Positions 1,111 through 62,999 of a DNA stretch of 64,000 nt are shown one piece after another; position 1 is the stretch's first letter, and each line of letters begins with the position of its first letter. The translations under genes and the position numbers were made by a program. Below the pieces are notes generated by a model, which did not search any database, had not been told where the DNA came from, and saw only the letters and a list, made by a program, of their open reading frames with translations. The stretch covers positions 3,100,001-3,164,000 of the forward strand of contig CM120642.1 in the NCBI GenBank assembly GCA_051362555.1, given 5' to 3'. Source of the DNA: Lingula anatina (Eukaryota > Animalia > Brachiopoda).

Positions 1111-1176
<66 letters not shown>

Positions 1177-1889: not shown

Positions 1890-1924
<35 letters not shown>

Positions 1925-1931
1925 TCTGTCA

Positions 1932-1982
<51 letters not shown>

Positions 1983-1989
1983 TCTGTCA

Positions 1990-2024
<35 letters not shown>

Positions 2025-2031
2025 TCTGTCA

Positions 2032-2088
<57 letters not shown>

Positions 2089-12744: not shown

Positions 12745-15700
12745 ATGATGAGAGAGAGAGGAGAACTGCCTGTCCATTCATACAAGGAGGAAATATTAAG
12801 AACAATTCATCGTAGTCCCGTGACTTTAATAAGAGGAGCCACTGGATGTGGTAAAACCACCCAGGTAAGGCATAATGATGTAGTAGATAGAGAGGGGTTG
12901 AAGGTGTCAACAGACACTTAATTTAACCATTTCGCCTGTTTAAAGTAGTCTAGATTAATGACTGCAGCACTTTAGGTTTTTTCAAATTGTTAACCCAAGA
13001 CAGGTGTAACTTTAATACATTGATAAGAAATGACTGATTGAATAAAGCAAATATTAAATGCACCAATTTATCATCAATTCAGGTGAATTTTTATTTTCTT
13101 TTGGCTGATTTAAAAATCATGCATAGCAGATGCCTTATTAAGCAGAACTTGATATTTTGTTCAATTTGTCCCATAATGGAATTTCCTTTGCTAATATGTT
13201 AATTTTTGGGTTTCATTTTCATCCTCAGGTTCCGCAGTTCATCATTGATGAGTTTATAGAGGCAGGTAGAGGATCTCAGTGCAATGTTGTGATTACACAG
13301 GTGAGTTTATAGAGGCAGGTAGAGGATCTCAGTGCAATGTTGTGATTACACAGGTGAGTTTATAGAGGCAGGTAGAGGATCTCAGTGCAATGTTGTGATT
13401 ACACAGGTGAGTTTATAGAGGCAGGTAGAGGATCTCAGTGCAATGTTGTGATTACACAGGTGAGTTTATAGAGGCAGGTAGAGGATCTCAGTGCAATGTT
13501 GTGATTACACAGGTGAGTTTATAGAGGCAGGTAGAGGATCTCAGTGCAATGTTGTGATTACACAGGTGAGTTTATAGAGGCAGGTAGAGGATCTCAGTGC
13601 AATGTTGTGATTACACAGGTGAGTTTATAGAGGCAGGTAGAGGATCTCAGTGCAATGTTGTGATTACACAGATGAGTTTACAGAGGCAGGTAGAGGATCT
13701 CAGTGCAATTTTGTGATTACACAGGTGAGATATGCTTTGAAAGTCCATATGCACCTTGTTCATCACACTGTATGTTTTTACTGGTAGATGACAATAAATG
13801 TGAATGAATGCCTGTAAATTTTTCAAACAAAACCAAGAATTCCATACAGTGTAACAGTGTGGATAGTCAAGATGAAAAAACTGCCAAAATATAGCAATTT
13901 GGAGTTTTCAAAGACATCGGTATTAAGGGCCTTTTCAGAATCAGTTGATCTGTAGACAAACTAGTCTGTGGATCAAATATGGTGAGCAGTTGACACTGGA
14001 TTCCCACCTCCCACTTGGACCAGTTAGTCTGCGGATCAACTGGTTCTGAACAGGCCCTAAGACTACAGCCTCAATCACTGTTCTCATGTTAGTAGGCTTG
14101 TTAAGGACCAAAAAATGGCCAAACGCTGCATTTTGTAGTACAAATGTCTAACTTGGCATAAATGTTCCTTGGGCCAAAAGAAAATTTTTTATGCTATGGA
14201 TACATTAATTAGCATAAATTATGCAAATTAGGTGCCAAAATATATAATATTTCATATTTCCATTAATATTTGGCCTAGAAACATGTATAGATTATCAAAC
14301 CTGACTAAATTAGGGACAAGGAACCCATTTTTGATCATTTGGAAGCAATTGGTGGCCATTTTGTGCCTCAAATCCAAGATGGCCGCCACCCGCCATTTTG
14401 AAAGTGGACATAATTTTGCTATTTTATGTTGAATTTTGAAGCGTTTGGTCTAACTATACTTGATATATATATCGATTCTTACTATTTTGGGGGTGCAAAA
14501 GTCATTTTTGATATTGTTATGGTGATAGTAGGTGATTTGAAGGAACAAAGGGGGTGTTTTAAGTGCCTACCAAGATATGTGTGAACGCTGCAAAACCATG
14601 GATATTAATAACCCGTATTCAAATATATGTCAATGCAATTTTTTGTTATATACCATCGCTATTGGACAATATTATTAGCAAAAAAAACCCTCATTTTTAC
14701 CATTATGGAGGCCATTGTGGCCGTTTTGTCCCTCAAATACAAGATGGCTGCCAAAAACCATTTTGAAATTGGGCATAATTTGCTACTTTGAAACTATATG
14801 TATTACATCTTTGTAAATGAGTAATACGTCATTTTATATTATTTTCTGGTGCAGAATACATTATTTGTTTCATAAAGTTTTTGCCTCAAATCCAAGATGA
14901 CCCTCATACGCCATTTTCAAATTGAGCATTATTCACCATTTTGAAACTATCACACCTTCATAAGCGTGCCATACGTCATTTTTGATTATTTCCTGGTGCA
15001 GAATGCATTTTCGGTTTCACCTAATTTGCATAATTTATGCTAATTAATGTATCGATAGAGGGCGTCTCTTTGGATAAAAAATTTTCTTTTGGCCCAAGGA
15101 ACATTTATGCCAAGTTAGACATTTGTACTATAAAATGCAGCGTTTGACCTCTTAACAAGCCTATTATGTGGACTAGTTAGTCTGTAGATCAACTGGTTCT
15201 GAACAGGCCCTAAGACTACAGCCTCAATCACTGTTCCCATGGACTAGTTAGTCTGCAGATCAACTGGTTCTGAACAGGCCCTAAGACTACAGCCTCAATC
15301 ACTGTTCTCATGTAGGCTAGTTAGTCTGCAGATCAACTGGTTCTGAACAGGCCCTAAGACTACAGTCTCAATCACTGTTCCCATGTGGACTAGTTAGTCT
15401 GTAGATCAACTGGTTCTGAACAGGCCCTAAGACTACAGTCTCAATTACTGTTCCCATGGACTTACAAAGATCTTATGATCAGTTGCTAAATGTGAAGTAC
15501 CATGGAAAGTTAGTGATTCAAAAGTACAAAGTAAGACACAGCTTTTGTAGTTTCTCCTCTGCCAACTAATTGTTAGGAATGTTAACATTAAATTGCAGTA
15601 AAAACAAAAACAAATAATATTATTTGGAAATATTCCTTTATAAATAAAGAAAAGGTATGCTACAAAATCTGCTGCAGTTATAAAAGCAAAAAATTACATT

Positions 15701-18700
15701 ATTTTGCCCTGCAATTAATATTACAGCAAAGTAAAGAATAAGCTGTTCACAGAAATTTACTAAGATGGCATCAAACAGAGACAGACCGCTAAAATAATTT
15801 TCTTATCATAACAAGTACATGTATTTGTAAAAAAGCTTATGAAAAAAATGCATGCAATAAACTAGAAACCAACATTGAGTTAAATTATAAATTGTCTCCT
15901 CCAGTGACCTATAACAAAATTAATTAACAATTAATTAATTAATTAACAATTAACAAAATTAATTAACAATTTCATTATCAATTTTGTTACACATTTAAAC
16001 ATTCTCTTTAATCAGAATTTTTGTACAACACAAGTGTCTCAGTAAACGCGTAGACTCACCAACTGAGTTTTCTTTAAACTTCATAGCTCACATTTTCTGC
16101 AAGACCAAAGATGCTATCTGGGTTGGTGCAAGCTGCATTGGTAACATTTTACAAAAATAAATTCTCAAAAGATAAGTAATTAAAGAATATTAACCAAATC
16201 ATATATAAAAGGTGAAGTATTGGTGTCGCATATTTAAGATTGTGATCAGACTAGTTCATAATGCATTTCCATTATGCCTGTATCTTTTCCATTATTATTA
16301 TATTTTAACAATGTACGAAGTTTTCAGTGTTTGTATAATTGTATATGACCATTTAAGTGCTGATGCAGCACACAACTTGCTTGCTCTCACATAGAGTTAA
16401 ATATTGCCTCTAGCATATTTCTGTCATACGGATGTTCCATAATTCTTGCTAGTTGGTGCTAAAGTTTACATGCCATGCTTTTAAAGAAGATGGCAGACTT
16501 TCACATCCATGAACTTTAATATGTTGGCATGTCAAGTCTGACGTAAGTTTCCAGCCCTCAAGTGAAAGATCACCAGATTCGTGGTATTGAAGCAACTTTT
16601 CCAATGCTTTCATGGAAAGGGACTCTTCTTTTTCAAAGATGCTTTTCCATGCAGCCATTCCCCTGTCTTCACTTGAACTGAATTCCGATGGACTTTTATG
16701 AGAAGTGTATATATAAAATCTTTGAGAAGTCAAGTGCTGCATAAAGATGTCAGTTATAGTAAGCATCATCTCCATATCACATAAAGTAGCACTCAGACTT
16801 AGTCCATGTACTTTTGCATGCTGTGACAGCACATCTAGGAATATTGATTCTGGGATGTCCTCAATAGTATAATGCTTACAAAACTGCTTCAGAACCAATT
16901 CTGATGTAAGCTGGTCTTTCGCTAAGATATCCATGCACCTTAACTACTCTATGTCAGAAGTGTTATTCATTGTGAAAAAATACTGTAACAGAATGTCAGC
17001 ATTCCTTTCTGCAGCTTTGTCACAGCTTCCATGGACCTCTGTATGCTGTGACAGCACATTCAGAAACAATGTCTTCTCCACTGCTGACAGGGTTCTGGTA
17101 GTATGGGTCTGGTAAAGTTGTTTGAGCACTTCTTTAGATATGTTTTCATCATCAGCTAAGATTTTCATACATTCTTTCTGCTCTGAGTTAGTGATGTCAC
17201 TGCTTATTAAGAAATCATGTAACACAAATCACAGCAATTCCTTCTGCAGCAGAATAATTGCTACCATGGATTGCTGCATGCTGTGACAGCACATTCAGAA
17301 ACAATGTCCTCTCTACTGCTGACAGGCTTCGGAATTTGTGAGTTTGGTCAAGTTGTTTGAGCACTTCTTCAGATGTGTTTTCATCCTCAGCTAAGATTTT
17401 CATACATTCTTTCTGTTCTGAGTCAGTGATGTCACTGCTTATTAAGAAATCTTGTAACAGAATCACAGCATTTCCTTCTGCAGCAGAACAACATCTACCA
17501 TGGACATCTGCATGCTGTGACAGCACATCCAGAAACAATGTCTTCTCCACTGCTGACAGGGCTCTAGTGGTATGTGTGTGGTAAAGTTGTTTGAGCACTT
17601 CTTCAGATGTGTTTTCATCCTCAGCTAAGATTTTCATACATTCTTTCTGCTCTGAGTCGCTACCATGGATCTCTGCATGCTGTGACAGCACATTCAGAAA
17701 CAATGTCCTCTCTACTGCTGACAGGCTTCTGGATTTGTGGGTTTGGTAAAGTTGTTTGAGCACTTGTTTAGATGTCCACCTATCCTTGGCTAAGATTTTC
17801 ATACAATCTGACTGCGCTGAGTCAGTGATGTCACTGCTTGTTAAGAAATCTTGTAAAAGAATCACAGCATTTCCTTCTGCAGCAGAACAACATCTACCAT
17901 GGATTTCTGCATGCTGTGACAGCACATTCAGAAACAATGTCTTCTCTACTGCTGACAGGCTTCTGGATTTGTGGGTTTGGTAAAGTTGTTTGAGCACTTT
18001 TTCAGATGTGTTTTCATCCTTGGCTAAAATTTTCATATATTTTTTTTGCTCTGAGTCAGTAATGTCACTGCTTGTTAAGAAATCTTGTAAAAGAATCACA
18101 GCATTTCCTTCTGCAGCAGAACAACATCTAACATGGATTTCTGCATGCTGTGACAGCACATTCAGAAACAATGTCTTCTCTACTGCTGACAGGCTTCTGG
18201 ATTTGTGGGTCTGGTAAAGTTGTTTGAGCACTTCTTCAGATGTGCATCTATCCTTTGCTAAGATTTTCATACATTCTTTCTGCTCTGAGTCAGTGGTGTC
18301 ACTGCTTATTAAGAAATCATGTAACACAAATCACAGCAATTCCTTCTGCAGCAGAATAATTGCTACCATGGATTGCTGCATGCTGTGACAGCACATTCAG
18401 AAACAATGTCCTCTCTACTGCTGACAGGCTTCGGAATTTGTGAGTTTGGTCAAGTTGTTTGAGCACTTCTTCAGATGTGTTTTCATCCTCAGCTAAGATT
18501 TTCATACATTCTTTCTGTTCTGAGTCAGTGATGTCACTGCTTATTAAGAAATCTTGTAACAGAATCACAGCATTTCCTTCTGCAGCAGAACAACATCTAC
18601 CATGGACATCTGCATGCTGTGACAGCACATCCAGAAACAATGTCTTCTCCACTGCTGACAGGGCTCTAGTGGTATGTGTGTGGTAAAGTTGTTTGAGCAC

Positions 18701-21700
18701 TTCTTCAGATGTGTTTTCATCCTCAGCTAAGATTTTCATACATTCTTTCTGCTCTGAGTCGCTACCATGGATCTCTGCATGCTGTGACAGCACATTCAGA
18801 AACAATGTCCTCTCTACTGCTGACAGGCTTCTGGATTTGTGGGTTTGGTAAAGTTGTTTGAGCACTTGTTTAGATGTCCACCTATCCTTGGCTAAGATTT
18901 TCATACAATCTGACTGCGCTGAGTCAGTGATGTCACTGCTTGTTAAGAAATCTTGTAAAAGAATCACAGCATTTCCTTCTGCAGCAGAACAACATCTACC
19001 ATGGATTTCTGCATGCTGTGACAGCACATTCAGAAACAATGTCTTCTCTACTGCTGACAGGCTTCTGGATTTGTGGGTTTGGTAAAGTTGTTTGAGCACT
19101 TTTTCAGATGTGTTTTCATCCTTGGCTAAAATTTTCATATATTCTTTCTGCTCTGAGTCAGTGATGTCACTGCTTGTTAAGAAATCTTGTAAAAAAATCA
19201 CAGCATTTCCTTCTGCAGCAGAACAACATCTACCATGGATTTCTGCATGCTGTGACAGCACATTCAGAAACAATGTCTTCTCTACTGCTGACAGGCTTCT
19301 GGATTTGTGGGTTTGGTAAAGTTGTTTGAGCACTTTTTCAGATGTGTTTTCATCCTTGGCTAAAATTTTCATATATTTTTTTTGCTCTGAGTCAGTAATG
19401 TCACTGCTTGTTAAGAAATCTTGTAAAAGAATCACAGCATTTCCTTCTGCAGCAGAACAACATCTAACATGGATTTCTGCATGCTGTGACAGCACATTCA
19501 GAAACAATGTCTTCTCTACTGCTGACAGGCTTCTGGATTTGTGGGTCTGGTAAAGTTGTTTGAGCACTTCTTCAGATGTGCATCTATCCTTTGCTAAGAT
19601 TTTCATATATTCTTTCTGCTCTGAGTCAGTGATGTCACTGCTTGTTAAGAAATCTTGTAAAAGAATCACAGCATTTCCTTCTATAGCAGAACGACATCTA
19701 CCATGGATCTCTGCATGCTGTGACAGCACATTCAGAAACAATGTCTTCTCTACTGCTGACAGGCTTCTGGATTTGTGGGTTTGGTAAAGTTGTTTGAGCA
19801 CTTTTTCAGATGTGTTTTCATCCTTGGCTAAAATTTTCATATATTTTTTTTTGCTCTGAGTCAGTAATGTCACTGCTTGTTAAGAAATCTTGTAAAAGAA
19901 TCACAGCATTTCCTTCTGCAGCAGAACAACATCTACCATGGATTTCTGCATGCTGTGACAGCACATTCAGAAACAATGTCTTCTCTACTGCTGACAGGCT
20001 TCTGGATTTGTGGGTCTGGTAAAGTTGTTTGAGCACTTCTTCAGATGTGCATCTATCCTTTGCTAAGATTTTCATATATTCTTTCTGCTCTGAGTCAGTG
20101 ATGTCACTGCTTGTTAAGAAATCTTGTAAAAGAATCACAGCATTTCCTTGTTCAGCAGAACAACATCTACCATGGACCTCTGCATGCTGTGACAGCACAT
20201 CCAGAAACAATGTCCTTTCCACTGCTGACAGGGCTCTAGTGGTATGTGTTTGGTAAAGTTGTTGGAGCACTTCTTCAGATGTGTATTTATCCTTGGCTAT
20301 AATTTTCATACATTCTGACTGCTCTGAGTCAGTGGTGTCATTGCTTGTTAAAAAATATTGCAGCAAAATCATAGCATTTCCTTTTGCAGCTGTGTCATGC
20401 ATGTACCAGTGGTATCTGTGGATCAATGCATGCTGTGACAGCACTTTCAGAAACAATGTCCTCTCTACTGCTGACAGGCTGCTGGATTTATGGGTCTGGT
20501 AAAGTTGTTGGAGCACTTCTTCAGATGTGTTTTCATCCTCAGATAAGATTTTCATACATTCTGACTGCTCTGAGTCAGTGGTGTAATTGCTTGTTAAAAA
20601 ATATTGCAACAATATAACAGCATTTCCTTTTGCAGCTGTGTCATGAATGTACCACTGGTATCTGTGGATCTCTGCATGCTGTGACAGCACATTCAGAAAC
20701 AATGTCTTCTCTACAGCTGACAGGCTCCTGGATTTGTGGGTTTGGTAAAGTTGTTTGAGCATTTCATTAGATGTCTGTGTATCCTTTTCTAAAATTTTCA
20801 TATATTCTTTCTGCTTTGAGTCAGTGATGTCACCGCTTGTTAAGAAATCTTGTAAAAGAATCACAGCATTTCCTTCTGCAGCTGAATTACAACTACCATG
20901 GACCTCTGCATGCTGTGACAGCACATTCAGAAACAATGTCTTCTCTACAGCTGACAGGCTCCTGGATTTGTGGGTTTGGTAAAGTTGTTTGAGCATTTCA
21001 TTAGATGTCTGTCTATCCTTTTCTAAAATTTTCATACATTCTTTCTGCTTTGAGTCAGTGATGTCACCGCTTGTTAAGAAATCTTGTAACATAATCACAG
21101 CATTTCCTTCTGCAGCTGAATTATAACTACCATGAACCTCTGCATGCTGTGACAGCACATTCAGAAACAATGCCTTCTCCACTGCTGACAGGGCTCTAGT
21201 GGTATGTGTCTGGTAAAGTTGTTTAAGCACTTCTTCACATGTGTTTTCATCCTTGGCTAAGATTTTCATACATTCTGACTGCTCTGAGTCAGTGGTGTAA
21301 TTGCTTGTTAAAAAATATTGCAACAATATAACAGCATTTCCTTTTGCAGCTGTGTCATGCATGTACAACTGGTATCTGTGGATCTTTGCATGCTGTGACA
21401 GCACATTCAGAAACAATGTCCTCTCTACTGCTGACAGGCTTCTGGATTTATGGGTCTGGTAAAGTAGTTTGAGCATTTCTTTAGATGTCCCCCTACCCTT
21501 AGCTATGATGTTCATACATTCTGACTGCTCTGAGGTGTCATTGTTTGTGTGTAGGTCCTGTCTCTGATATACATGTAACAATAGACAACAGGCAGCAAGA
21601 CCAACTCCTCTACCACTGCAGTGTTTATCCAGGTCAAAGACTAAATTTTTCAGTGTATCTCTCCCCTCTTCATTGGGAAGCATTTTGATTTGTTGAAGAA

Positions 21701-24700
21701 CGAGCTTCAGCAAGGTTTGATTTCTAGCAAGTATTTTCAGAATTTTTGTCTTTTTCTCATTCTTACGAAGTTGCTTGATAAAGATTTCAGCAATGGCTAG
21801 CCAGGTTTTGAGTTCTGTTTTGGGTGTTTGTGACAGAAGTTTCCAGTTTTCACTTAAATGTAATGTATTATCTCCTTCAGCATTATGTAACAGTTCCAAC
21901 AGCTCTGTCTTTAGAAACATGGTGAAAGCTTTTTGTTTTGGGGAGGCAAGTTTGAAAACTTTTTGCTTCAAATTTCTGCACACTTTAGCATTTTTATTTG
22001 AATCACAGCCAACACAAAGAAGGATAGAAGCAAGTTTCTTCTGCTGAACTTTGTTTACTTTTGTAAATAGTTCAGGATAAAGTTCAAGCAATTTGACAAT
22101 ATCCTCCACATGCCTCTTGTCTGCTGGAGTGGTTTCTGATGAAAGCAACGACTGGAGTTTCACTACACTGAGTGATTCTTCATTTCCAGGATTTTCAGAA
22201 TTCATGGACTCTGTAGTTTCATCAACTTCACTGTCATGATGAAGAACTTCTACATAACTACATGTATTTACCTCTCCATTTTTTATTGGTGCTTGATGGG
22301 TCTTATCAATTTGGTGCTTTTTTTCATCTAAAGAAAGGAATTATATATTGTCATCCATCACACGAGCAAAAATAAAATTTATAATCCCATGTAAAATTCA
22401 GAAAATAAGAGTTTGACCTTGTGTATCATCATATTTGAGTTTCTAATCTTTATATGTAAACTAGTTGCAGTTAGGTAGTAGACACTTTCATACAGATTTG
22501 GGAATAATTTGATCATTTTACCTCCTGAATTATTTTCTGTATTTTCACTGTCTGAGTCATTGCCACTGCCACTGTCCTCTCCAGAGTCATATTTCTCATA
22601 GTCTTTATAATTAGCATCAGAGGGCAAGGTGTCACATACCACTGGTCTTTGAATAAGCCCATGACACACTGGGAGACCTTCCATTTTTAGTAGATCAGCC
22701 ACAGTCTCTGTAAGTATATATATAATATAGATGGCTATGAAAAATTAGTTGCAGTTTTTACCTGTATAAAACCGAAAAATATAATAGTGTTTCATAATAG
22801 TTAATAATAGCTGTGACAGCACATATTACCACAATTGATGACCCACCATGATTATGTATATTAAAAAAATAAATAGATAAAAAATATTAATAATATAATT
22901 CAGAGTACATAAACTGATACACATTGGGATGGGTGTTACTGTTCAGTGTATATTTTTCTGAATAATTTAAAAACCAGTAATATTCAGCTGAAGTATATTT
23001 CTCACCAGCAAATGTTTGTTGATGCATCATATACAAAGCAGTAAGCAGTTGTGCTGTGATTTGTTCAACAGGTTGGTCATAGTTCCTCTCTAGGAAACTT
23101 TCTAAGCATTCTAAACACTGTGCTTCTTCTTCATCAGGGTGCTGGGACACAATGGCTTGTGTATCTTCCTCTGTAAACTTCAGATGCAAAGCCAACTCCT
23201 TCCACATGCATGACACACGGGGTGATATATGTGCAAATATGGATGCCCAAACTTCACACTTAAATAATCAAAAATACTTTTGAGAAAAATGGTCAGTGTA
23301 GGAAGATACAATGGGATAAATGTACACTCAAGTAAATGCATGATTTGCTTGCAAAAGATTATACATTTTGATTAAGATGTTTTGGCTTTACGTTTATAAA
23401 AAAATAAAAATTGAAATTTTAAAAATAAAAAAAAATGTTTATTTTGATTCTTATATATAAATTACCATTGCAGCAGTTTCTTTTTCTGACTTCATAATGT
23501 GGCAACTCTTTTGATAAGTTACTGTGCAAAATTCCACTTCAATATCTTGCTCAACAGTCAGTGGCCTCTCTTGCTTTATTTGAGTGCCAGATGTAGAGGG
23601 CAATTCTATATTGGTTTGGGTTTCTGGTTCTCCTACAACAGAGGATTGATAGGTGAAAGATTTGAAAGTACATATTTATTACACTGCTTATAAAAACATT
23701 AATGTTATCAAATATATATCACCTGGTTGATGGTTGTTAAAATTTTGTTTATATTGAATATTCATTTTGTTACTGATTTGTATTCCAATCAGTTTCAATG
23801 TATTGGTTTATTCATTACAAAGTTCCTTAGTGATATACTTGTAGAAAAGCTGATACAAAGAAAACTATTTTCCAAAACTTAGCTACAGTGTGCAACTAAG
23901 AATTTATCAAATTAGTTGTAGTTATAAATTGTTTTTTTTTTTTTTTTTTTTTTTTGTTATTAAATAACAAATGTAGCATTATTTTAAAGAAATTCTGTTT
24001 CTCAAGACTGCTTAATAATATATTGCAAATACTTATAGGTGCAGGTAGCCGGTCACTTTGATTTCAGAGGTGCTGCGAGAGCAAAACTTACCTGGTTTTG
24101 TGAAGAATTCCCAGGCTGTAGCCAACTCTTGTTCACAAATGTATACATCCACATACAGCTCTTCTCCCTCCATCTCTTTAAGTTCTTGGGTGATGAACTC
24201 ATTTGTCAGAAACCTAGATAAATCCCCAGACTTGTACTCTGTCCAGAAACTCTGTAACTTCTCTACAGCATCAAACATTAACACACACTCCACACAACCT
24301 TCAATGAGCTTGATTAAATGTGCCCCTCTTTTGATGAATGAGTCAGCTGCCCTTTTAAATTGAGCCAGGTCTTGAAGCATTTCTTTTGTAAAATACTTGT
24401 CTGCCTTTTTGGCGATCTCTTTTGTTTCCCAGTACTTGACATGCATTTTAGCATGAAGAACTAAAAAAAAGGGGAAAATAACATATTTACTGTTACTTGT
24501 ATGAATGATATAATATATATTTACTATTGGTATTTGACTTTGATAAATTGTGTAGTTGTAGAGGAAAACTTTTACTGAACATCCATTTAGCTATCTTCTT
24601 AACTGACCAAGATAAACCAACTAAATATGTTGCATACATTTTTCAATAAAAAGCTTATTTCAGCATCTTCTCATTTCATATTCTTATTTTATTATATGTA

Positions 24701-25119
24701 GCCATATAGCTCTCACAGCATTCTTTTCCTTCAACAAAATGGCTCTGTAGTCATGGATTCTCTTAAACACTGCCTCCAAACTGTATGGATGAATACCAAT
24801 TCAACAAAGGGCCACAGCTTCCTATTGAAGGGGCCCCTTTGGGGGCCAAGCATAGATTAACTAATATGCATACTGGGCAGATGGCACTCTTACGCATTCA
24901 CCAATTATATTACATTTTGATACCTCCATGCAATCAGTCAATGGGCAGATGTCAGGCCAACACACAGGTTTAAAATATGACAGGTCAACTGCCAAACAAA
25001 AACTGACAGTAAGAGGCTACACCCTACACAAAAGTCACCAAATTCCACTTACCTCACCTGGCAATTCAAATGTACATTCTCTGACTCAATTAGTGATAAT
25101 CTATCAACTTTAGGGACTA

Positions 25120-25194
<75 letters not shown>

Positions 25195-26554
25195 AGGATA
25201 TGAAATGAAAGCTTTATATTGATACGCAACTTGTATATCTAGATATATCTTTGCACGTTAAGAAGATAGCCACGTTCCTACCACCTCCCCTATATATATC
25301 CTAAGAATATAAACATGTAAATGATCTTGTTGTAATTGTTTGCTATCACAGATTTCCCGTTTTTTTAAGTAAAAACTTTTGAAAAAGAAAAGATTTGTAC
25401 CATTTCTCTTGTGGATGTTTTTCTTGTCATCCTTTGAAGCATTCTCTTGTTTGACCTTTTTAGGCTTAATGAGCTTCATGGCCATGTTCTCCATCTCTTC
25501 AAGTGTTTTTGTTAGCTCTTCATCACTGTCAGATTGTTCATATCGCTGTTTTCTTATTTTGCTGCAATTATCAAATAACTTGCAGCTGAGGTAATTCATC
25601 CCTAGAAATGAATATTAACATTACAAGTCGTCGGTGTATATTTTATAAACAGACAAAATTACCAGTTGGTCAAGTTGATATTTGTCAATATTATTATTTA
25701 AAGATTAACAATGTAAGATTTTTTTGCTCAGCAAATTTTACCTGGGTATAAGATATTTTTAACAACTACAAAACCAACCACTGTTTATTGACCTTGGCCT
25801 TAGTGCTGTAAAAATCTGCGGAAATTAAGAAGTCCTTTCATCCATGCTTAAGGGTGGGTTTTACAAAGTCCAACATCACTTTGAGCACTGAATTCCAGGT
25901 TGTTCTTGATTCAAAGCTTTGTTAGGATGGTTGACAGGTGGCAAGGTTCATTGAAGACATTAATAATTGCAATTATATTTAAAAATCACAAAATATATAT
26001 TTTTTGTTCTGAGATAAAGTCAAGAGAAAATGATTTAAGTAATAAATGAGTTTTAATTTTTATGATTTGTCACTTTAAGATTTTATCTTTATCTTCAAAA
26101 ATATTACCTTCAGTGATGTGCCTTTGTTCTAAAGGACACGTGTTGCATTGTTTCTCACAAGATTCAGCATCTGGGGCAATCTCGTCTAATTTTTAAGATA
26201 TGGGATGAAAAAAGAAAATGTTTATCAATGTAGCACATATGAAATGCCATTTATATTTGTCTAAAATCTCAAATATACTGACAGTCAATGAAAAAGCATC
26301 AGAAAACTTTCTTGTACTTTTTTACCTAGAATCGATTCCAACCATGTAAACAAGTACAAATGCACTTGTTTGATTATAAGAGAGTGGGCTGACCACTATT
26401 TCACATTTCACATGAAAACTGTTATTTTCTTAATGTGCCAAAGCAACTTCAGATCTTATTTGATAAATAAACGTTACATAATCCCATTCAGTGTAATATT
26501 TTTATGTAAGCATTCTTTATATACTGGCAGTCAGTGAAAACTCATCGTTTATTT

Positions 26555-26604
<50 letters not shown>

Positions 26605-28886
26605 AGATTCATTGCCATAGTTCAAATAAATGAATTACATAATACCTTCATATTTTATTCTCTTGACACTGCTCTTGGATCCTGAATTTATGATAATATG
26701 ATAAGATAATAATTATTTATCATATTCATACATAGTATAAAATGAAAATCTCTGTCATCTATCATCAAACTGAATTTGTACATTATTATTATAATTTTGT
26801 GATAATAAGTTTTTGGAAAGATTTAATGTTTTATTTACAAGAGCCAGAAAATAAGCAATGTGCTGTATTGGGGGGAGGGGGGGGGGCATGTCTTTTGACC
26901 TTTCTCTATGTGACACCCAATGTGAGATACAGCAACTAACCATTACCAAGTTGCAATAGAATTTGATTAATAGATTATAACACCTTGAACATGTTCCCCA
27001 CCCCATCCAGCATTTTTCTCAGGCTAGGGCCAAGTACATTTACCCTCTTGGATTTGAGCATGTGTCACTTCCAATACACAGACTTTCCTTTCCCCACCCC
27101 AACATGATGAATTTCACCCTTCAGGTATGCCTTTTTAATTTCTCAATTTTATGCCTGACTGTAAGCATGTGTTCATGACACTTGGTCTTTAACTTAAGTC
27201 ATTTAAATAATTAACACCAACCTTGCATGTCTTTAAGTCATCTAACTAATTAACACCAACCTTGCATGTCTTTAAGTCATCTAACTAATTAACACCAACC
27301 TTGCATGTCTTTAAGTCATCTAACTAATCAACACCAACCTTGCATGTCTTTAAGTCATCTAAATAATTAACACCAACCTTGAATGTCTTTACGTCATCTA
27401 AATAATTAACACCAACCTTGCATGTCTTTAAGTCATCTAAATAATTAACACTAACCTTGCATGTCTTTAAGTCATCTAAATAATTAACACCAACCTTGCA
27501 TGTCTTTAAGTCATCTAACTAATTAACACCAACCTTGCATGTCTTTAAGTCATCTAACTAATTAACACCAACCTTGCATGTCTTTAAGTCATCTAACTAA
27601 TCAACACCAACCTTGCATGTCTTTAAGTCATCTAAATAATTAACACCAACCTTGCATGTCTTTAAGTCATCTAAATAATTAACACCAACCTTGCATGTCT
27701 TTAAGTCATCTAAATAATTAACACTAACCTTGCATGTCTTTAAGTCATCTAAATAATTAACACCAACCTTGCATGTCTTTAAGTCATCTAAATAATTAAC
27801 ACCAACCTTGCATGTCTTTAAGTCATCTAACTAATTAACACCAACCTTGCATGTCTTTTTTTCTTTTTTTCCTGGCCCTCTTTTCTAATCGCTGCATGCG
27901 TTTTTCAGCTTCCTCAATGGTATCACATAATCTGGGGCATTCAGCATTCTTGAGCAGCTTCTTAAGATCATCATAATTTCCCAAAGTGATGATTCTTTTT
28001 TCTTCAAGGCGATTGAGAAGTGCCAGCTTGTCATTTTCTTCTGATACACTAGCCCCTTATGGCGTCCTTAGATGTTGTTTGATATTTTTAAAGTCATCAG
28101 TTGTAAGCTCATCTTTTATTCTTGTGAGCAACTTATCATGTACTTCTTGTAAACTTTCGCACTTGCCATATAATCCAGTACTGTCAGTGGTAAGGTAATC
28201 CATGTCTGTTCAATTAAATAACTGCAAGAGAGGTCAATAATAAAGTTAGGTTGATTTGTGACCTGTTATACTCACATTAATTTTTCTTTGATCGGGTGAT
28301 TTCCCTGTTGCCCTATGTGCTGGAAAAAACACCTTCATTTCAGTTTCATAAACCAAAAAAAATCCCCTTCCTATTTTAATTAGGCATGGCAGGTTTTCTC
28401 AACTGTCACATTGGTGTTTCAGGTGTGATATGTCAACAATTGAGAAAGGTTTTGTTTGTTTATAGTAATTTGGAAAAAAAATGCATAGATTTATTTAAAA
28501 TCTGAAGTTAGTGTTCGGTATATATGGAAATGAAAACAAAAAAAATTGATTCAGAATAGGTTGTCTCCTGTTCTAATACATGTTTAAAGTGAATGCATCA
28601 CACACTGGGATAGATTAGCTAGCAATTTTTTGTTGATTTTATTTATTAAAAGACATGTCTAAAAATAAACTAACCAATGCTACTAAAACATATCCTTTTT
28701 CATCCCTGGAGGTGGAACAAAATGACGCCATCGTATATGAATCCACTAAAAGCATGTTATCCCATTTCATTGTCAGCATTATTTTTTAGTATATATTTTA
28801 TTCAGTAGCAAACAAGATACAGTCTTACAATAATTTTTTGCCTATAAATCACACACACTTACACACATGCACTCTCCTAGCTCTCA

Positions 28887-28930
<44 letters not shown>

Positions 28931-31906
28931 AAAAAATATACAGTTACAGTAGTGCACATAAGGATTGAAAGAGGGATTGACCATTCACTGTCACTTAAAA
29001 GTGACATAATATTTGGCTAAACCATTATCTCCATACATTTCTTAAAGTAAATAATTAGTTCATAAAGTTTTATCCTCTCCTATATGGTCTCAAACAACAG
29101 TGTATCAACAGTTAGAGCTACAAGCAGTGGAAAAAAAGACTCACCTTGCTTTTTGCCTGTCTTTCTTTGCTAAACGGTCTGCTACAGTTTATTCTGAAGG
29201 TAGTTCCAGTGTTTGGTTTGTGCTGCAACTTACTAAAATGTTAAACTGAGATATATCAACTTGGTTGAATGACCCAAATTTGTGCTGAAGTTCTTTTTAA
29301 ACAGAGGTCCTCACCACTGCTGGTTTTGAAGTGACATAACTTTCAGTCTTGTGGCTGTTCACATCTGGAGTCTTCATTAAGTGTCTGAATATTTTATACT
29401 ATAATGTGTAAATTTTATAACACTCCCAAGCAAAATGTTGTAAAATCACTACTTTCAGACAAAAGTGGAAATCCCAATTACTATTAATAGTGCATGACAT
29501 ATCAGCATATCATTACCTGTTTGTGATTGTTGGTATAGGATAGTCATGGACTTTGATTACCACAGTTTTACAACAATTGTGATAAGTTTTGAGGGGGGAT
29601 TACAATTTGACAGATATCATAAACCAGTACAACATGATTGATAACAAAATAACATATTATTACATGTACATACCTTCTGTCTGTGTGACAGTGAAAATTC
29701 TCTCTGTTGGTTGGTTTTATATGTTTAACCTTTGAGTGTTGTGAGTCACCACTACACAATATCCAGTATCAGATTATAGTTTTAATCATTTGCTGTTTAG
29801 GCACTATGTTTCATGACAGAGACACGGGCAAAAACCTAAGGTGTTACAAATTACTCTTACAACTATAGGTCAGACCAAGATATAGTTTATACTGAATTCA
29901 AATATCTGTTGAGTCCTTACTGCACTGTTTCTGGTAGTTTTATTTAACTTGGAGTGTATATAAACTGTGCTCATGTGATTGCCCTCAAAATGTGCTCTAA
30001 TTTTTTTCAAAAAATTAATTGAGTACTTTTTTACATTCAGAAGATAAACTTTCCGTTTGCCCTTAACCTTTGTATCTTAATTGGGGGTTGAGGGAAGGGG
30101 GACTGATGGGGTAATTAATTCTGAAAACTCATGTGTTTGTGGTATTTATTTTGAGTTATCGATCAGGACTTTGTTCATGGATAGATTATTAAAATTTTCA
30201 TTTGAATCAAGTTGGTTAAATAGTATGCAATTGGTTGTGGTACAAAATGAAGGAAAATCTGTCTAAAAATGATATCAAAGCTAAAAAAAAACTTTTTTCT
30301 TTCAAAATGCCATGTCTTCTTAACTTGGATGTATGAAAATTTATTTTCTATTTTTAAATAGAAATTTAAATTTCATTGTATGTTTAAAATTTTATATTCC
30401 TTTTTCTTACTAGCCCAGAAGAATCAGCGCAGTGTCCATTGCAGAAAGAGTTGCCAATGAGAGGTCAGAAAACCTTGGTGTGAGTTGTGGCTACAGCGTG
30501 AGATTTGAATCTGTGCTGCCACGACCATATGGTGCCATCTTATACTGTACTGTTGGTAAGATATTTAACTCCATGCTTGTATCATATGGTGTCATCTTAT
30601 ACTGTACTGTTGGTAAGATATTTAACTTTACGTGCTTAAAACACATGTATGCATAATTTTCTTAAAATTAACTTAGAAAGACAGCTGTTTTTATGAAATA
30701 TGGCCTACTATTAAATTTTTTTTATCAACATGACATGTATTGTGTGATGATTACTTATAAATTTGTAAAAAACTGAAAATTGCTATGTTTAGTATTAATG
30801 AAATGTAAAGGCACTGAAGAGAGCATATTATTATGAATTTTTTAATGCAGTCCCTTTATTTCAAGGCACATTACTGAGAAAACTGGAGAATGGTTTGCGA
30901 GGTGTTTCCCATGTTATTGTGGATGAAGTGCATGAAAGGGATCTCAATGTAAGGAATGCTACGTATTAAAATATCTTCACATATTTTAAATAATTAACTT
31001 CTATCAGAAAGAGAGAAAGAGAGAACTCAATTTTGAAACTAAATCTTTTTCTTTACTTTACATCTCACATTTATTTTAAAAATTGAGTGTATTAAAGGGA
31101 TAATAACTCTTCGTTTCGGCCAAAAAATGAATTTTCCTGGAGTAAACAATAATTTTCCCATACTAACCAATGGTTAATGGATCCATTTTTACATTCAAAG
31201 TTAGTCCCTGATTTTTTTCTAAAAAGTTCGGTTTTTGTTTAAATCTCTTAAGAGATTTTAGCAGAGTATAGCCATCAATGGAGGTCACATGGTCTAAAGA
31301 CAAGCTCAGATATCAGAATAATAGCTATAACTGCCGTTTTTGTGGTAAAACAGAATATATTATATTTCTATGAGTTATTCACAAAGTTTTTATTGTGAAA
31401 TATAGATCTCGTACGAAGAGTTATTATCCCTTTTAGCAAATAGTAATGTTATATTTTATTAAATCCAAAAATAAAAAATAAAATGTCATTTTGTAGTTAT
31501 TAGTATTTCCCATTTTACTTGGTTTTATGTTTTTTTTTTTAATGATAGAAATAAAACTTACATTATCATATTTAAAACACTAATAGAGTTTAAAATGTCT
31601 GTTTACAGACTGATTTCTTGATGGTGATGTTACGAGACATGGTCCATGTTTACAAAGATCTCCGTATTGTCATTATGTCTGCCACTGTGGACACAACCTT
31701 ATTCACTGACTACTTTGGCTCAGTGGAAGTTGTAGAAGTTCATGGCAGACTGTTCCCTGTGCAAGGTATTGAGGGTGTAGTCTTGGGGTTACTTGAAAAC
31801 AAGATCAGATAATGTGTTAAGTTTGTGGACTTAGTAGCAGTAAACATTTTCTGTCATTATTACCTCTTGTTTCCTATTTTAATGATGTTGATGCGTGCAC
31901 CCCCCA

Positions 31907-31952
<46 letters not shown>

Positions 31953-32642: not shown

Positions 32643-32711
<69 letters not shown>

Positions 32712-37671: not shown

Positions 37672-37727
<56 letters not shown>

Positions 37728-57297: not shown

Positions 57298-60200
57298 CTA
57301 GTTGGTGCTGTCTTTTACACGCCATGCTCTTAAAGAAGATGGCAGACTTTCTCGTCCATGAACTTTGATATGTTGGCATGTCAAGTCTGACATAATTTCC
57401 CAGCCCGTAAGTGAAAGATCACCTGATTCATGGTATTGAAGCAACTTTTCCAATGCCTTCATTGAAAGGGATTTGTCTTTTTCAAAGATGCTTTTCCATG
57501 TAGTCATTTCCCTGTCTTCACTTGTTTTCAATTCTAATGGTTTTCTATTAGAAGTGTTAAAATAAGAACTTTGAGAAGTCAAGAAGTGTATAAAAATTTC
57601 AGTTATGGTTAGCATTATGTCCATATGATATGAATAAGCACCTAGACTTATTCCATGTACTTGTACATGCTGTGACAGCACATCTAGGAATATTGATTCT
57701 GGGATGTCCTTAATAGTGTGAGGTTGGCAAAACTGGTTCAGAACACATTCTGATGTGAACTCGTCTTTGGCTAAGATATCCATGCAACTTAACTGCTCTG
57801 TCTCAGTAATGTTCTTGTTTGTGAAATAATATTGTAACAGAATCACAGTTTTCCCTTCTGCAGATTTGTAAGAACTCCGATGGACCTCTGCATGCTGTGA
57901 CAGCACATCAAGAAACAATGTCTTCTCCACTTCTGTTAGAGTTCTAGTGTTGTGGGTCTGGTGAAGTTGCTTAAGCACTTCCTCAGATGCCCATAAATCG
58001 TTGGCTAAGATTTCCATACATTTTGACTGATCTGAGTCAGTGATGTCATTGCTTGTTAAGAAATATTGCAACAGAATCACTGCATTTCCTTCTGCAGCAG
58101 GGAAACATCTACCGTGGACTTTTGCATGCTGTGACAGCACATCCAGAAACAATGTCCTCTCCACTGCTGACAGATTTCTGGTGGTATGGGTCTGGTAAAG
58201 TTGTTTAAGTATTTCCTCAGAAGTCCACCTATCCTTAGCTAAGATTTTCATATATTCTGACTGATCTGAGTCAGTGAAGGCATTGCTTGTTAAGAAATAT
58301 TGCAACAAAATCACAGCATTTCCTTTGGCAGCAGAAATACAGCTACTGTGGACATCTGCATGCTGTGACAGCACATTAAAAAACAATGTCCTCTCCACAG
58401 CTGACAGATTTCTGGTGGTATGGCTCTGGTAAAGTTGTTTGAGCACTTCCTCAGATGCCCATGAATCCCTAGCTAAAACTTTCATACATTCTGTGTAATC
58501 TGAGTCAGTGGTGACGATTGTTGACAAAAAATGCAACAAAATCACAGCATTTCCTTTTACAGCAGAAATACAGCTACCGTGGACCTCTTCATGCTGTGAC
58601 AGTACATTCAAAAACAATGTTCTCTCCACTGCTGACAAGGTTCTATTCGTATGGGTCTGGTAAAGTAGCTTCAGCAATGCCTCAGATGCCCATCCTTTTA
58701 GAGTTCTAGTGTTGTGGGTCTGGTTAAGTTGCTGGAGCACTTCTTTAGATGTGGCTTTATCCTTGGCTAAGATTTGCATACATTTTGACTGCTCTAATTC
58801 AGTGATGTCATTGCTTGTTAAGAAGTATTGCAACAGAATCACAGCATTTCCTTCTGCAGCAGAATGACATCTACCATGGAATTCAGCATGCTGTGACAGC
58901 ACATTCAAAAACAATGTTCTCTGCACTGCTGACAAGGTTCTATTGGTATGGGTCTGGTAAAGTAGCTTCAGCAAAGCCTCAGATTCCCGTGCATCTTTGG
59001 CTAAGATTTTCATACATTTTGACTGCTTTGAGTCAGTGATGTCATTTTGTGTTAAAAAACACTGCAACAGAATCACAGTCTTTCTTTCTAGAGCAGGGAA
59101 ATATCTACTATGGTCCTCTGCATGCATTGACAGCACATCCAGAAACAATGTCTTCTCCACTGCTGACAGGGTTCTAGATTTGTGGGTCTGGTTAAGTTGC
59201 TGGAGCACTTCTTCAGATGTGGCTTCATCCTTGGCTAAGATTTGCATACATTCTGACTGCTCGAATTCAGTAATGTCTTTGCTTGTTAAGAAGTATTGCA
59301 ACAGAATCACAGCATTTTCTTCTGCAGCAGAATAACATGCACCATGGACCTCAGCATGCTGTGACAGCACATCAAGAAACAATGTCTTCTCCACTGCTGA
59401 CAGGGTTCTAGATTTGTGGGTCTGGTTAAGTTGCTGGAGCACTTCTTCAGATGTGGCTTCATCCTTGGCTAAGATTTGCATACATTCTGACTGCTCGAAT
59501 TCAGTAATGTCTTTGCTTGTTAAGAAGTATTGCAACAGAATCACAGCATTTTCTTCTGCAGCAGAATAACATGCACCATGGACCTCAGCATGCTGTGACA
59601 GCACATCAAGAAACAATGTCTTCTCCACTGCTGACAGGGTTCTAGATTTGTGGGTCTGGTTAAGTTGCTGGAGCACTTCTTCAGATGTGGCTTCATCCTT
59701 GGCTAAGATTTGCATACATTCTGACTGCTCGAATTCAGTAATGTCTTTGCTTGTTAAGAAGTATTGCAACAGAATCACAGCATTTTCTTCTGCAGCAGAA
59801 TAACATGTACCATGGACCTCAGCATGCTGTGACAGCACATCAAGAAACAATGTCTTCTCCACTGCTGACAGGGTTCTAGGTTTGTGGGTCTGGTTAAGTT
59901 GCTGGAGCACTTCTTCAGATGTGGCTGCATCCTTGGCTAAGATTTGCATACATTCTGACTGCTCGAATTCAGTAATGTCTTTGCTTGTTAAGAAGTATTG
60001 CAACAGAATCACAGCATTTCCTTCTTCAGCTGAATGATATCTACCATGGACCTCAGCATGCTGTGACAGCACATCCAGAAACAATGTCTTCTCCACTACT
60101 GACAGGGTTCTAGTGTTGTGGGTCTGGTAAAGTTGTTTGAGCACCTCTTCAGATGTTCTCCAACACTTGGCTAAGATTTTCATACATTTTAACTGCTTTG

Positions 60201-62555
60201 AGTCAGTGATGTCATTTTGTGTTAAAAAACACTGCAACAGAATCACAGCATTTCCTTTTGCAGCAGAATAACATGAACCATGGACCTCAGCATGCTGTGA
60301 CAGCACATCCAGAAACAATGTCTTCTCCACTACTGACAGGGTTCTAGTGTTGTGGGTCTGGTAAAGTTGTTTGAGCACCTCTTCAGATGTTCTCCAACAC
60401 TTGGCTAAGATTTTCATACATTTTAACTGCTTTGAGTCAGTGATGTCATTTTGTGTTAAAAAACACTGCAACAGAATCACAGCATTTCCTTCTGCAGCAG
60501 AATAACATGTACCATGGACCTCAGCATGCTGTGACAGCACATCCAGAAACAATGTCTTCTCCACTGCTGACAGGGTTCTAGATTTGTGGGTCTGGTTAAG
60601 TTGATGGAGCACACCTTTAGATAAGGCTTCATCCTTGGCTAAGAATTGCATACATTTTGACTGCTCTAATTCAGTAATGTCTTTGTGTGTTAAGAAGTAT
60701 TGCAACAGAATCACAGCATTTCCTTTTGCAGCAAAAAAACATGTACCATGGACCTCAGCATGCTGTGACAGCACATCCAGAAACAATGTCTTCTCCACTG
60801 CTGACAGGGCTCTAGTGGTATGTGTCTGGTAAAGTTGTTTGAGCACCTCTTCAGATGTTCTCCGATACTTGGCTAAGATTTTCATACATTTTAACTGCTT
60901 TGAGTCAGTGATGTCATTTTGTGTTAAAATACACTGCAACAGAATCACAGCATTTCCTTCTGCAGCAGAATAACATGTACCATGGACCTCAGCATGCTGT
61001 GACAGCACATCCAGAAACAATGTCTTCTCCACTGCTGACAGGGTTCTAGATTTGTGGGTCTGGTTAAGTTGATGGAGCACACCTTTAGATAAGGCTTCAT
61101 CCTTGGCTAAGGATTGCATACATTTTGACTGCTCTATTTCAGTAATGTCTTTGCTTGTTAAGAAATACCGCAACAGAATCACAGCATATCCTTCTGCAGC
61201 AGAATAACATCTACCATGGACCTCAGCATGCTGTGACAGCACATCCAGAAACAATGTCTTCTCCACTGCTGACAGGGTTCTAGATTTGTGGGTCTGGTTA
61301 AGTTGATGGAGCACACCTTTAGATAAGGCTTCATCCTTGGCTAAGGATTGCATACATTTTGACTGCTCTAATTCAGTAATGTCTTTGTGTGTTAAGAAGT
61401 ATTGCAACAGAATCACAGCATTTCCTTCTGCAGCAAAAAAACATGTACCATGGACCTCAGCATGCTGTGACAGCACATCCAGAAACAATGTCTTCTCCAC
61501 TGCTGACAGGGCTCTAGTGTTGTGGGTCTGGTAAAGTTGTTTGAGCACCTCTTCAGATGTTCTCCGATACTTGGCTAAGATTTTCATACATTTTAACTGC
61601 TTTGAGTCAGTGATGTCATTTTGTGTTAAAAAACACTGCAACAGAATCACAGCATTTTCTTCTTCAGCAGAATAACATCTACCATGGACCTCAGCATGCT
61701 GTGACAGCACATCCAGAAATAACCTCCTCTCCACTGCTGACAGGATTCTAGTGTTATGGGTCTGGTAAAGATGATTGAGTACTTTTTTAATTATCTCCTT
61801 GCAATTGGTTAATACTTTCTTTGACTTATTAATCTTTATACAGGGCTTTAGTTTTGCAGATCTTCTGTCCTGAATCTGCAGCAGACTATAGTCAGCAAGA
61901 CCTTCTTCGATTTTTTGAAGAACAAACTTCAGCAAGGTTGTGTTTCTAGCAAGAATTTTAAGAATGTTTGTCTTTTTTCTCTCGTTGTTTCTTAGTTGCT
62001 TTGTAAAGATATCAGCAATGGCTTGCCAGGTTTGAAGCTCTCCTTTAGGTGTTTGTGACAGAAGTTTCCAGTTTTCACTTAAATGTAATGTATTATCTCC
62101 TTCACCATTATGCAGCAGTTCTAACAGCTCTGTATTTAGAAGACTGGCAAAAGCTTTATGAAGGGAGGCAAGTTTCAAAATTTTTTGCTTCAAATTTCTG
62201 CACACTTTTGCATTTTTAACTGAATCACAGCCTACACAAAGAAGCATGGAAGCAAGTTTTTTCTGCTCATCTTTCTTTACTTTTGTAAAAAGTTCAGGAG
62301 AAGGTTCAAGTAATTTTACAATATCCTCCACATGCTTCTTATCTGCTGGAGTGTTTTTTGATGAAAGCAAAGACTGGAGCTTCACTATGTGGAGTGATTT
62401 TTCATTTTCAGGACTTGGTTTAGTATTCATAGAGTTTGTAGTTTCATCAGCTTCACTGTCATGATAAAGATCAACTTCTACATAACTACATGTATTGGCC
62501 TCTCCCTTTTTTAGCCATGCTTGGTAGGTCTGGTCACTCTGGTGTTCATTTTCAT
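57298..62555 (-). CDS. Giant terminal exon of the nested gene (unit C): ~1750 aa, N-terminal helical region + ~18x78-aa repeats + cap; upstream exons off-window
   Basis: Uninterrupted ORF. Acceptor CAG at 62558-62556 is homologous to the acceptor at 22330-22328. Repeat consensus [78 protein letters not shown]. Paralogous to 16449-22327. Confidence 0.9.
57650..61790 (-). repeat. Coding tandem repeat, 234-bp unit (~18 units)
   Basis: Same unit as 16800-21550, with all units in frame. Confidence 0.95.
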
Positions 62556-62999
62556 CTGAAGAAATTGTATTGTTATCCATCACAAGTGCATAGATAATAT
62601 TTATTATCCCAAGATAAAATTGAGAAAAAATAGTATGGCCTTTTGTATAAGCATGTTTGAGTTCTAATCTTTATATAAAAACAAGGCAGCAAAGCTGTCA
62701 AATGTACAGACAAAAAGCAGAAAATAACAATGCACAAAAAAAAAAAAAAAAAAAAAATGCCAATATACGAAAAAATCAAATTTTCACAAAAAATGAATAA
62801 CTTCTAGAAAAACTAGAGGATCAGAGAGGCGATACCGCCTCCGAATATTGTACCACCAGCTGGAGTAAGCGCGATCGTATAGACCCCACACACACAAAAA
62901 AGGATACCAACACCAGTCTTATGCTTGACAAGTTGTAAAAAATGCAATCAACAAGAATTCTCAAAATATGCAAAAAATATATATAACTAAAAATGGTAC

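Follow-up and report, generated by a model that had tools for sequence, protein, structure and literature searches.

The 64,000-nucleotide stretch of Lingula anatina DNA analyzed here, referred to as the window, carries a long minus-strand gene, which we call copy 1, and the last exon of a tandem paralog, copy 2. Copy 1 comprises nine coding exons and eight introns, all with GT-AG boundaries and compatible phases, for a coding length of 7527 nt, or 2509 codons. The features are as follows.

29145..29240, minus strand: candidate non-coding first exon, proposed from sequence only; donor at 29144-29143, upstream limit guessed
27846..28221 (coding 28203-27846), minus strand: exon 1, DED and basic stretch; ATG at 28203
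26646..26681, minus strand: exon 2, 36 nt linker; GT-AG, phase 1-1, without homolog or read support
26108..26185, minus strand: exon 3, 78 nt linker; GT-AG, phase 1-1, without homolog or read support
25401..25601, minus strand: exon 4, charged linker; 71% identity to residues 12-74 of RefSeq relative P0003
24092..24460, minus strand: exon 5, TRADD-N domain; PF20694 match and homology
23466..23632, minus strand: exon 6, linker; 82-89% identity to Lingula proteins
23006..23258, minus strand: exon 7, death domain (DD); PF00531 match, 89-92% identity to Lingula proteins
22522..22707, minus strand: exon 8, end of the DD helix and acidic/Ser-rich linker
16449..22327, minus strand: exon 9 (5879 nt), acidic linker, caps and repeats
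17195..19143, minus strand: exact duplicate of 847 nt within the repeats; spacing 1102 nt
57298..62670, minus strand: copy 2, last exon; open over 1790 codons, 18 repeats

Because the splice junctions of copy 1 were chosen by eye, the nominal (1/3)^8 chance overstates the evidence for them. Independent backing for the joins comes from RefSeq Lingula proteins, which connect the counterparts of exons 4/5 to 9, and Met194 in exon 4 is the counterpart of the XP_013419534.1 start. Within exon 1, the DED covers approximately residues 24-101 and the basic stretch residues 108-116. Exon 9 runs from an acidic linker through a ~200-aa helical cap and 21 repeats (~21540-16740) to a ~100-aa C-terminal cap.

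A sequence-only reading of this DNA had called a DED, a TRADD-N-like domain and a death domain by eye, and had anticipated that domain searches would find all three. Each is indeed matched by a Pfam profile. The DED of exon 1, with X placed at its stop codon, matches PF01335 with an E value of 2.7e-8 and 34.4 bits, under the cut-off of 35.9; the TRADD-like_N domain of exon 5 matches PF20694 with an E value of 4.2e-4 and 20.5 bits, under the cut-off of 23.7; and the death domain of exon 7 matches PF00531 with an E value of 2.3e-5 and 24.9 bits, over the curated cut-off of 22.6. When PDB sequences were searched with phmmer, the DED yielded weak caspase-8 matches only (E 0.47-2.8). Pfam lists no NACHT, NB-ARC or kinase domain across the 11 window segments scanned, in line with the same reading, and no NACHT or NB-ARC domain, the mark of an NLR or STAND protein, for relatives P0001 and P0002. 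Whole-protein matches to CarD_C, MunI, BibA_N and RL were rejected as summed repeat noise with zero passing stretches.

Exon 5 is identical to XP_013393640.1 at 109 of 119 residues. The corresponding gene, LOC106161282, is filed together with LOC106180164 as ‘TRADDN-DEDD2+Death’ by Kaur et al. 2021 (eLife, PMC8195603, Fig. 4 source data 1), and a DED+TRADDN-DEDD2+Death protein of Lingula with identical module order is tabulated there as well. By homology, the docking part of copy 1 is thus probably a DEDD2-clade TRADD-N module, the clade being taken from the entry for the 92%-identical homolog in that table. The gene shows a death-like domain beside TRADD-N (the DD downstream, joined in RefSeq models, and the DED upstream, on genomic evidence), and it shows a variable flank of 5-21 repeats and a lineage-specific expansion, with two tandem copies and Lingula-only relatives found. 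The uS motif of TRADD-N consists of a tiny residue plus Ser, occasionally Cys, at the beta2-beta3 turn (PMC8195603); a Gly-Cys pair common to the homologs lies between two hydrophobic stretches within the TRADD-N Pfam match, and its placement as the uS motif was made by eye. The closest relatives are therefore already catalogued, in a family whose members are likely adaptors in immunity, and the proposal that copy 1 belongs to no named gene family does not stand.

The repeat array of copy 1 contains 21 motifs in exon 9 with a unit of ~78 aa and predicted helices, which bears out the ~20 helical repeats of 78 aa first reported from the sequence. Eleven of the 20 spacings between motifs measure 234 nt, with three at 246, three at 235, two at 165 and one at 225. 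Across four gene versions the number of repeats varies from 21 (copy 1) and 18 (copy 2) to 7 and 5 in the two Lingula RefSeq genes. For 34 of 35 inner units the nearest neighbor lies within the same gene copy, and the repeats are homogenized within each copy. Entropy per unit peaks in the loops that follow helices 1 and 3, although any repeat, under selection or not, would be expected to vary in its loops, which tempers loop entropy as a sign of sensing.

A three-unit model (pLDDT 75.9, pTM 0.70) contains 12 helices, and each 78-aa unit is predicted to form four helices that stack into a HEAT-like solenoid. Stacked helical hairpins of the kind predicted are shared with the HEAT/TOG alpha-solenoids of CLASP2 TOG1 (5nr4), the TSC2 N-terminus (5hiu) and SF3B1 (5ife), which provide the best structural matches in a flat ranking (Z 9.0-10.2, rmsd 5.2-5.4), the top one (Z 10.2, rmsd 5.2) falling inside the range that the tool calls non-specific for helical repeats. 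These proteins differ from the 78-aa, four-helix unit in sequence, with 8-12% identity and no sequence-level match. Four single units searched against Pfam gave nothing below E 0.03, and a repeat profile gave nothing below E 0.2 among PDB sequences. Foldseek found no match to the three-unit model at E<=0.001 among PDB and viral structures, which is not proof of a new fold, and the ESM Atlas gave no usable match, a result that speaks neither for absence nor for novelty. For the C-terminal 566 aa of copy 2, Foldseek matches to ARM/HEAT structures were set aside, since the single-sequence fold behind them has a pLDDT of 52.7. No published description of the repeat was found in the literature searched, which lay outside subscription papers. 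What is new here is an unnamed, copy-number-variable 78-aa repeat matching no family; the docking part had been catalogued before.

Upstream exons of copy 2 were not found within the 64-kb window. Copy 2 is 80% identical to copy 1 in the N-cap and 71% identical in the C-terminal 164 aa. Exon peptides resembling DHX9 are nearly identical between the two tandem units. Sequence searches found relatives in two Lingula anatina genes only, and a phmmer search of 1.84 billion representatives with the N-cap and first repeats returned P0002, a Lingula RefSeq relative, as the sole match. These two genes, LOC106161282 and LOC106180164, share with copy 1 the TRADD-N domain, linker, DD, caps and 78-aa repeats, at 71-92% identity per exon segment. 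Their models, however, lack a DED, hold 5 or 7 repeats versus 21, and have open frames. The architecture string given for them in PMC8195603 leaves the repeat region unnamed.

The open reading frame of copy 1 is broken by two nonsense codons and three +1 frameshifts. A premature TAA stands at codon 49 of exon 1 (28059-28057), inside the DED, and exon 9 contains +1 shifts near 19850, 18330 and 17228 and a TAG at 16946-16944. As assembled, copy 1 cannot make the 2500-aa protein. The suggestion that nine phase-compatible exons assemble into one protein thus holds for the exons, their GT-AG boundaries and their phases; a single ~2500-aa product is not borne out, with stops and frameshifts in copy 1 and no joint found to the DED exon. 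Checking of lesions against reads was confined to the codon 49 TAA, which one DNA contig of run X1 carries exactly; three other contigs encode Leu, as do 5/5 RNA reads covering the site. Both copies of the 847-nt duplicate carry one shared frameshift. Given the two nonsense codons, the three frameshifts, the TAA in the X1 contig and the frameshift copied by the duplication, copy 1 has probably decayed. It would have done so after tandem duplication, the junction of which likely lies just upstream, at 28.3-30.4 kb. As one part of our best explanation, copy 1 is probably a Lingula-type DEDD2-clade TRADD-N gene, one of a tandem pair and no longer intact.

Seven RNA reads map to the DED exon, all confined to it and all from one of three RNA runs. 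Low-level RNA exists over a Leu-bearing version of this exon. Runs X11 and X14 gave no DED-exon reads in the ~6% of each that was examined, which is too little for a test. Neither these seven reads nor any database protein found joins exon 1 to later exons, and all three RefSeq models (XP_013393640.1, XP_013419526.1 and XP_013419534.1) lack a DED. The working product might accordingly consist of TRADD-N, DD and repeats alone, beginning at Met194 or Met230 as in the RefSeq models, all of which start in exon 4 or 5. The DED exon would then form a small gene of its own or an alternative exon that can be spared, and its TAA would be harmless to the main product. No relative containing a DED came to light, but the search was weak (0/159 candidates at E<=0.001, with the post-stop half of the DED as query and protein lengths of 124-2000 aa). 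We consider a DED-less product unlikely, because exons 1-4 have canonical sites and compatible phases, with codon 49 as their sole stop, because RNA coverage halts at both edges of the DED exon, and because TRADD-N usually follows a DED in the constant module of the DEDD2 clade (PMC8195603). In intact versions, the DED exon is probably spliced to the later exons.

We somewhat favor a joint explanation in which copy 1 is broken and intact versions have the putative function of autoinhibited cytosolic sensor-adaptors that trigger death signaling. A ligand that is foreign or signals damage would dock on the predicted repeat solenoid, presumably at a surface made of the two loops that vary most in each unit, and binding would release the DED and the death domain to recruit cell-death partners. 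Through homotypic contacts, the DED would bind DED-caspases or FADD and the DD would bind DD adaptors. Unequal crossing-over or slippage could alter the number and order of repeats, and hence specificity. In a published model, itself a prediction, TRADD-N keeps the neighboring domains switched off, and a signal that reconfigures it lifts this block; a constant death-fold and TRADD-N part is combined with a variable C-terminus, and repeat arrays are proposed to sense invaders (PMC8195603). Lingula has FADD and DED caspases (PMC11463336).

Intact versions might instead be brakes or scaffolds rather than sensors, which would sequester FADD or DED caspases or organize a complex while the repeat array drifts by slippage without a role in specificity. 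HEAT-like solenoids are common scaffolds, the Pfam scan reveals no enzymatic effector domain, and the array has expanded even across a frameshift. Vertebrate DEDD2 is described as acting in this manner with cFLIP, and as a negative regulator of nuclear apoptotic events (PMC8195603); DEDD has nuclear localization signals (NLSs; PMC2173221), and copy 1 has a basic stretch after its DED. Nonetheless, the 71-90% identity between paralogs and the fourfold range in repeat number would seem more in keeping with an arms race than with a housekeeping scaffold, and we regard the brake or scaffold role as improbable.

It is very unlikely that the exon 9 breaks and the tandem layout are partly assembly artefacts (homopolymer error, mis-expanded repeats or two haplotypes placed in tandem) and copy 1 a near-functional allele: one exon 9 frameshift sits in an A-run (9 vs 8), as is typical of assembly error, mis-assembly could account for the exact 847-nt duplicate, and the near-identity of the DHX9-like peptides points the same way, but a second exon 9 lesion is a multi-base change outside long homopolymers, the TAG is a point change, the codon 49 TAA recurs in an independent-format contig of X1 (which may be the source sample), X1 has no fewer than three versions of the sequence around 28039-28042, which exceeds the two alleles of one locus if X1 is a single animal, and the last exon of copy 2, with similar repeats, is error-free over 5.4 kb.

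A bolder extension of the preferred sensor-adaptor reading, and one we hold to be quite unlikely, is that lingulids evolved their own modular immune receptor, in which arrays of 5-21 units arise by reshuffling and copy-number expansion of a new 78-aa repeat that has four helices and two hypervariable loops. If true, the repeats of one giant exon would be linked straight to a death switch of DED, TRADD-N and DD that has no NTPase, and would form a code-like sensor array that diversifies in the germline, comparable to LRR, PPR or TALE arrays but based on an unrelated repeat. Computational work has revealed DEDD2-clade TRADD-N expansions in sessile marine animals, and the switch model is a prediction (PMC8195603). 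The Lingula gene offers a simple test case: it has three docking modules, it lacks an enzyme, and its repeat array, housed in a single exon, differs from one to another of the four versions. Added here are a DED exon absent from the RefSeq models and a repeat covering much of a region left unlabelled in PMC8195603. Loops that encode specificity would make the gene a novel scaffold for receptors; otherwise it adds a further architecture to an expansion already known, represented here by a decaying copy.

Among known systems, amphioxus LRR-array proteins and their like match copy 1 exactly or almost exactly in the order of their N-terminal modules; their C-terminal part is variable, and its modules differ from those of copy 1. 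None was recovered by sequence search with exon 5, and these relatives are therefore distant. Vertebrate DEDD and DEDD2 (FLAME-3) likewise have a DED followed by TRADD-N, with NLSs in DEDD where copy 1 has its basic stretch; unlike copy 1, DEDD2 is ~326 aa long and lacks a DD or repeat array. FADD and TRADD share death-fold adaptor modules with copy 1. FADD, however, is a short protein of DED and DD only (both domains are described in PMC11463336), and copy 1 also has TRADD-N and the repeat array, so it is not a FADD ortholog. Nor is it a TRADD ortholog, since no match of exon 5 to classic TRADD_N (PF09034) is listed at E<=1 and the DD is internal, followed by ~2000 residues; PMC11463336 reports no TRADD detected in lophotrochozoans. 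The view of copy 1 as an adaptor attached to a repeat array holds up, whereas two claims made with it do not fare as well: TRAF-type partners for TRADD-N are doubtful, since MATH/TRAF is not a universal TRADD-N partner (PMC8195603), and a fusion of FADD and TRADD need not be invoked, since classic TRADD is confined to vertebrates and DED plus TRADD-N is the constant module of the DEDD2 type (PMC8195603).

The nine-exon architecture of copy 1, the minus-strand death-domain gene, is real. All eight introns are GT-AG with matching phases and the exons sum to 2509 codons, which bears out the phase-compatible exons of the sequence-only reading. The DED, TRADD-N and death domain (DD) proposed there each have a Pfam match, and its roughly 20 repeats of 78 aa correspond to 21 counted motif copies. 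Its claim that NACHT/NB-ARC and kinase domains are absent agrees with a Pfam scan of 11 segments, in which the families listed include no NTPase or kinase. The window consists of AT-rich animal DNA with introns.

Features discussed in the text, in window positions
28203 to 16449, minus strand: nine coding exons of copy 1
Exon 1 of copy 1, residues 24-101, minus strand: DED (Pfam E 2.7e-8; 34.4 bits against a cut-off of 35.9; stop read as X)
Exon 5 of copy 1, minus strand: TRADD-like_N (Pfam E 4.2e-4; 20.5 bits against a cut-off of 23.7)
Exon 7 of copy 1, minus strand: Death (Pfam E 2.3e-5; 24.9 bits against a cut-off of 22.6)
Exon 9 of copy 1, 5879 nt, minus strand: 21 repeat-motif copies, mostly spaced 234 nt apart
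57298-62670, minus strand: last exon of copy 2, the tandem paralog; open, 1790 codons, 18 repeats
1-9440 (A) and 30414-44700 (B), plus strand: two copies, by similarity, of a DHX9-like gene with an RGG-rich tail

A 39-nt tandem array (27194-27858; 17 copies, 97% match) starts at the exon 1 donor, so that the donor sequence is present 17 times in intron 1. Past a long T-run, a short open stretch at approximately 25117-25051 (minus strand) is a possible extra exon whose donors, judged by eye, are out of phase with exons 4 and 5.

The remaining point of interest is the repeat, which is unnamed and fast-changing. Four single units gave nothing below E 0.03 in Pfam, and a repeat profile gave nothing below E 0.2 against PDB sequences. 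An AlphaFold2 model of three units, based on an alignment of 19 overlapping windows from copies 1 and 2, has four predicted helices per unit (pLDDT 75.9, pTM 0.70); HEAT/TOG solenoids are the structures that match it best (Z 10.2, rmsd 5.2), in a flat ranking within the non-specific range for helical repeats. Of 39 units, 35 are distinct; among these, the loops after helices 1 and 3 contain the four well-filled columns with the highest variability. With first and last units excluded, the inner units share a mean DNA identity of 0.89 inside copy 1, 0.83 inside copy 2 and 0.82 across the two copies, and for 34 of the 35 inner units the nearest neighbor belongs to the same gene copy. Each copy's array was therefore expanded or homogenized separately.

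Intact versions are somewhat likely to act as cytosolic sensor-adaptors, a reading in which the anatomy is observed and we infer every functional step. The solenoid would take a ligand via its variable loops, the TRADD-N switch would open, and the DED and DD would bring in DED caspases, FADD or DD adaptors. PMC11463336 reports that Lingula possesses FADD and DED caspases, and PMC8195603 (Kaur et al. 2021) proposes that repeat arrays may sense invaders. The latter also proposes that TRADD-N holds flanking domains inactive pending a signal. Rather than sensor-adaptors, intact versions might constitute a brake or scaffold, which we consider unlikely. The sensor-adaptor reading and its three rivals are not mutually exclusive.

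Joining of the DED exon to the remaining exons is putative. In RNA run X17, all seven reads are confined to this exon and none carries a splice joint from it; codon 49 is Leu in all five covering reads, which shows low-level transcription of a Leu-bearing version of the DED exon in one run. DED-exon reads number zero in the approximately 6% searched of each of RNA runs X11 and X14. The only relatives found are the Lingula anatina genes LOC106180164 and LOC106161282 (two of 4901 candidates, two of 118 candidates, and one match among 1.84 billion representatives), and exon 5 of copy 1 is 83-92% identical to Lingula anatina proteins, which makes Lingula or a close lingulid the likely source. In the RefSeq models of the two genes, the counterparts of exons 4/5 to 9 are joined in open reading frames; the repeats number 7 and 5, and every model lacks a DED. 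A main product without the DED is a doubtful alternative to a sensor-adaptor that includes it.

The window is a tandem duplication in which sequence starting at position 1 comes again from 30432, each unit pairing a plus-strand gene that resembles RNA helicase A (DHX9; E 1.6e-28) tail to tail with a death-domain gene. Exon peptides of helicase copies A and B are almost identical and flanking DNA is 80-97% identical; copies 1 and 2 are 80% identical over the N-cap and 71% identical over the C-terminal 164 aa. Their similarity stops within the intron preceding the last exon (62685-64000 region), and a 146-nt repeat array (62999-63564) lies beyond. The gap between copy 1's candidate first exon and unit B's first helicase exon, which codes for a mid-helicase segment, is only ~1.2 kb; judged by eye, it holds no ORF of at least 35 aa resembling the missing front of the helicase. 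Helicase copy B is therefore likely to be 5′-truncated. The duplication junction presumably lies in the same gap, so that copy 1 may have lost an upstream control region, which could fit its decay. Within an intron of helicase copy B, inverted repeats of ~800 nt (97% identical) flank a 3.7-kb insertion (35708-39455), possibly a DNA transposon, of which a related ~1-kb element (14087-15168) may be a short derivative. A GC-richer, satellite-like array with 146/325-nt periods (51868-53126) lies between helicase copy B and copy 2.

As assembled, copy 1 is broken, with two nonsense codons and frameshifts. Codon 49, within the DED, is TAA, and a TAG at 16946 corresponds to CAG in the paralog. In exon 9, a +1 shift near 19850 falls in a run of 9 A (8 in sister units), and an identical +1 shift with TGA occurs near both 18330 and 17228. 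Both identical shifts are contained in an 847-nt exact duplicate spaced 1102 nt apart; this leaves two readings, growth of the array once the lesion was present or a repetition introduced by the assembly. In DNA run X1, possibly the source sample, one contig over 28012-28125 is the exact TAA version and three others have Leu, with at least three sequence versions around 28039-28042. That the lesions or the tandem pair are an assembly artefact is quite improbable.

The sequence-only reading recognized no named family and saw a FADD+TRADD fusion with TRAF-type partners; both views largely fall away. The architecture belongs to the catalogued DEDD2-clade TRADD-N proteins, and PMC8195603 indicates that MATH/TRAF is not a universal TRADD-N partner. 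In that paper, 33 brachiopod copies of DEDD2-clade TRADD-N are counted, and clade proteins keep their death-like plus TRADD-N portion constant while their flanks vary. PMC11463336 describes TRADD as not detected among lophotrochozoans, and PMC2173221 gives DEDD three NLSs and DEDD2 a length of 326 aa. Copy 1 is a variant of this already catalogued type, and the variant itself is new.
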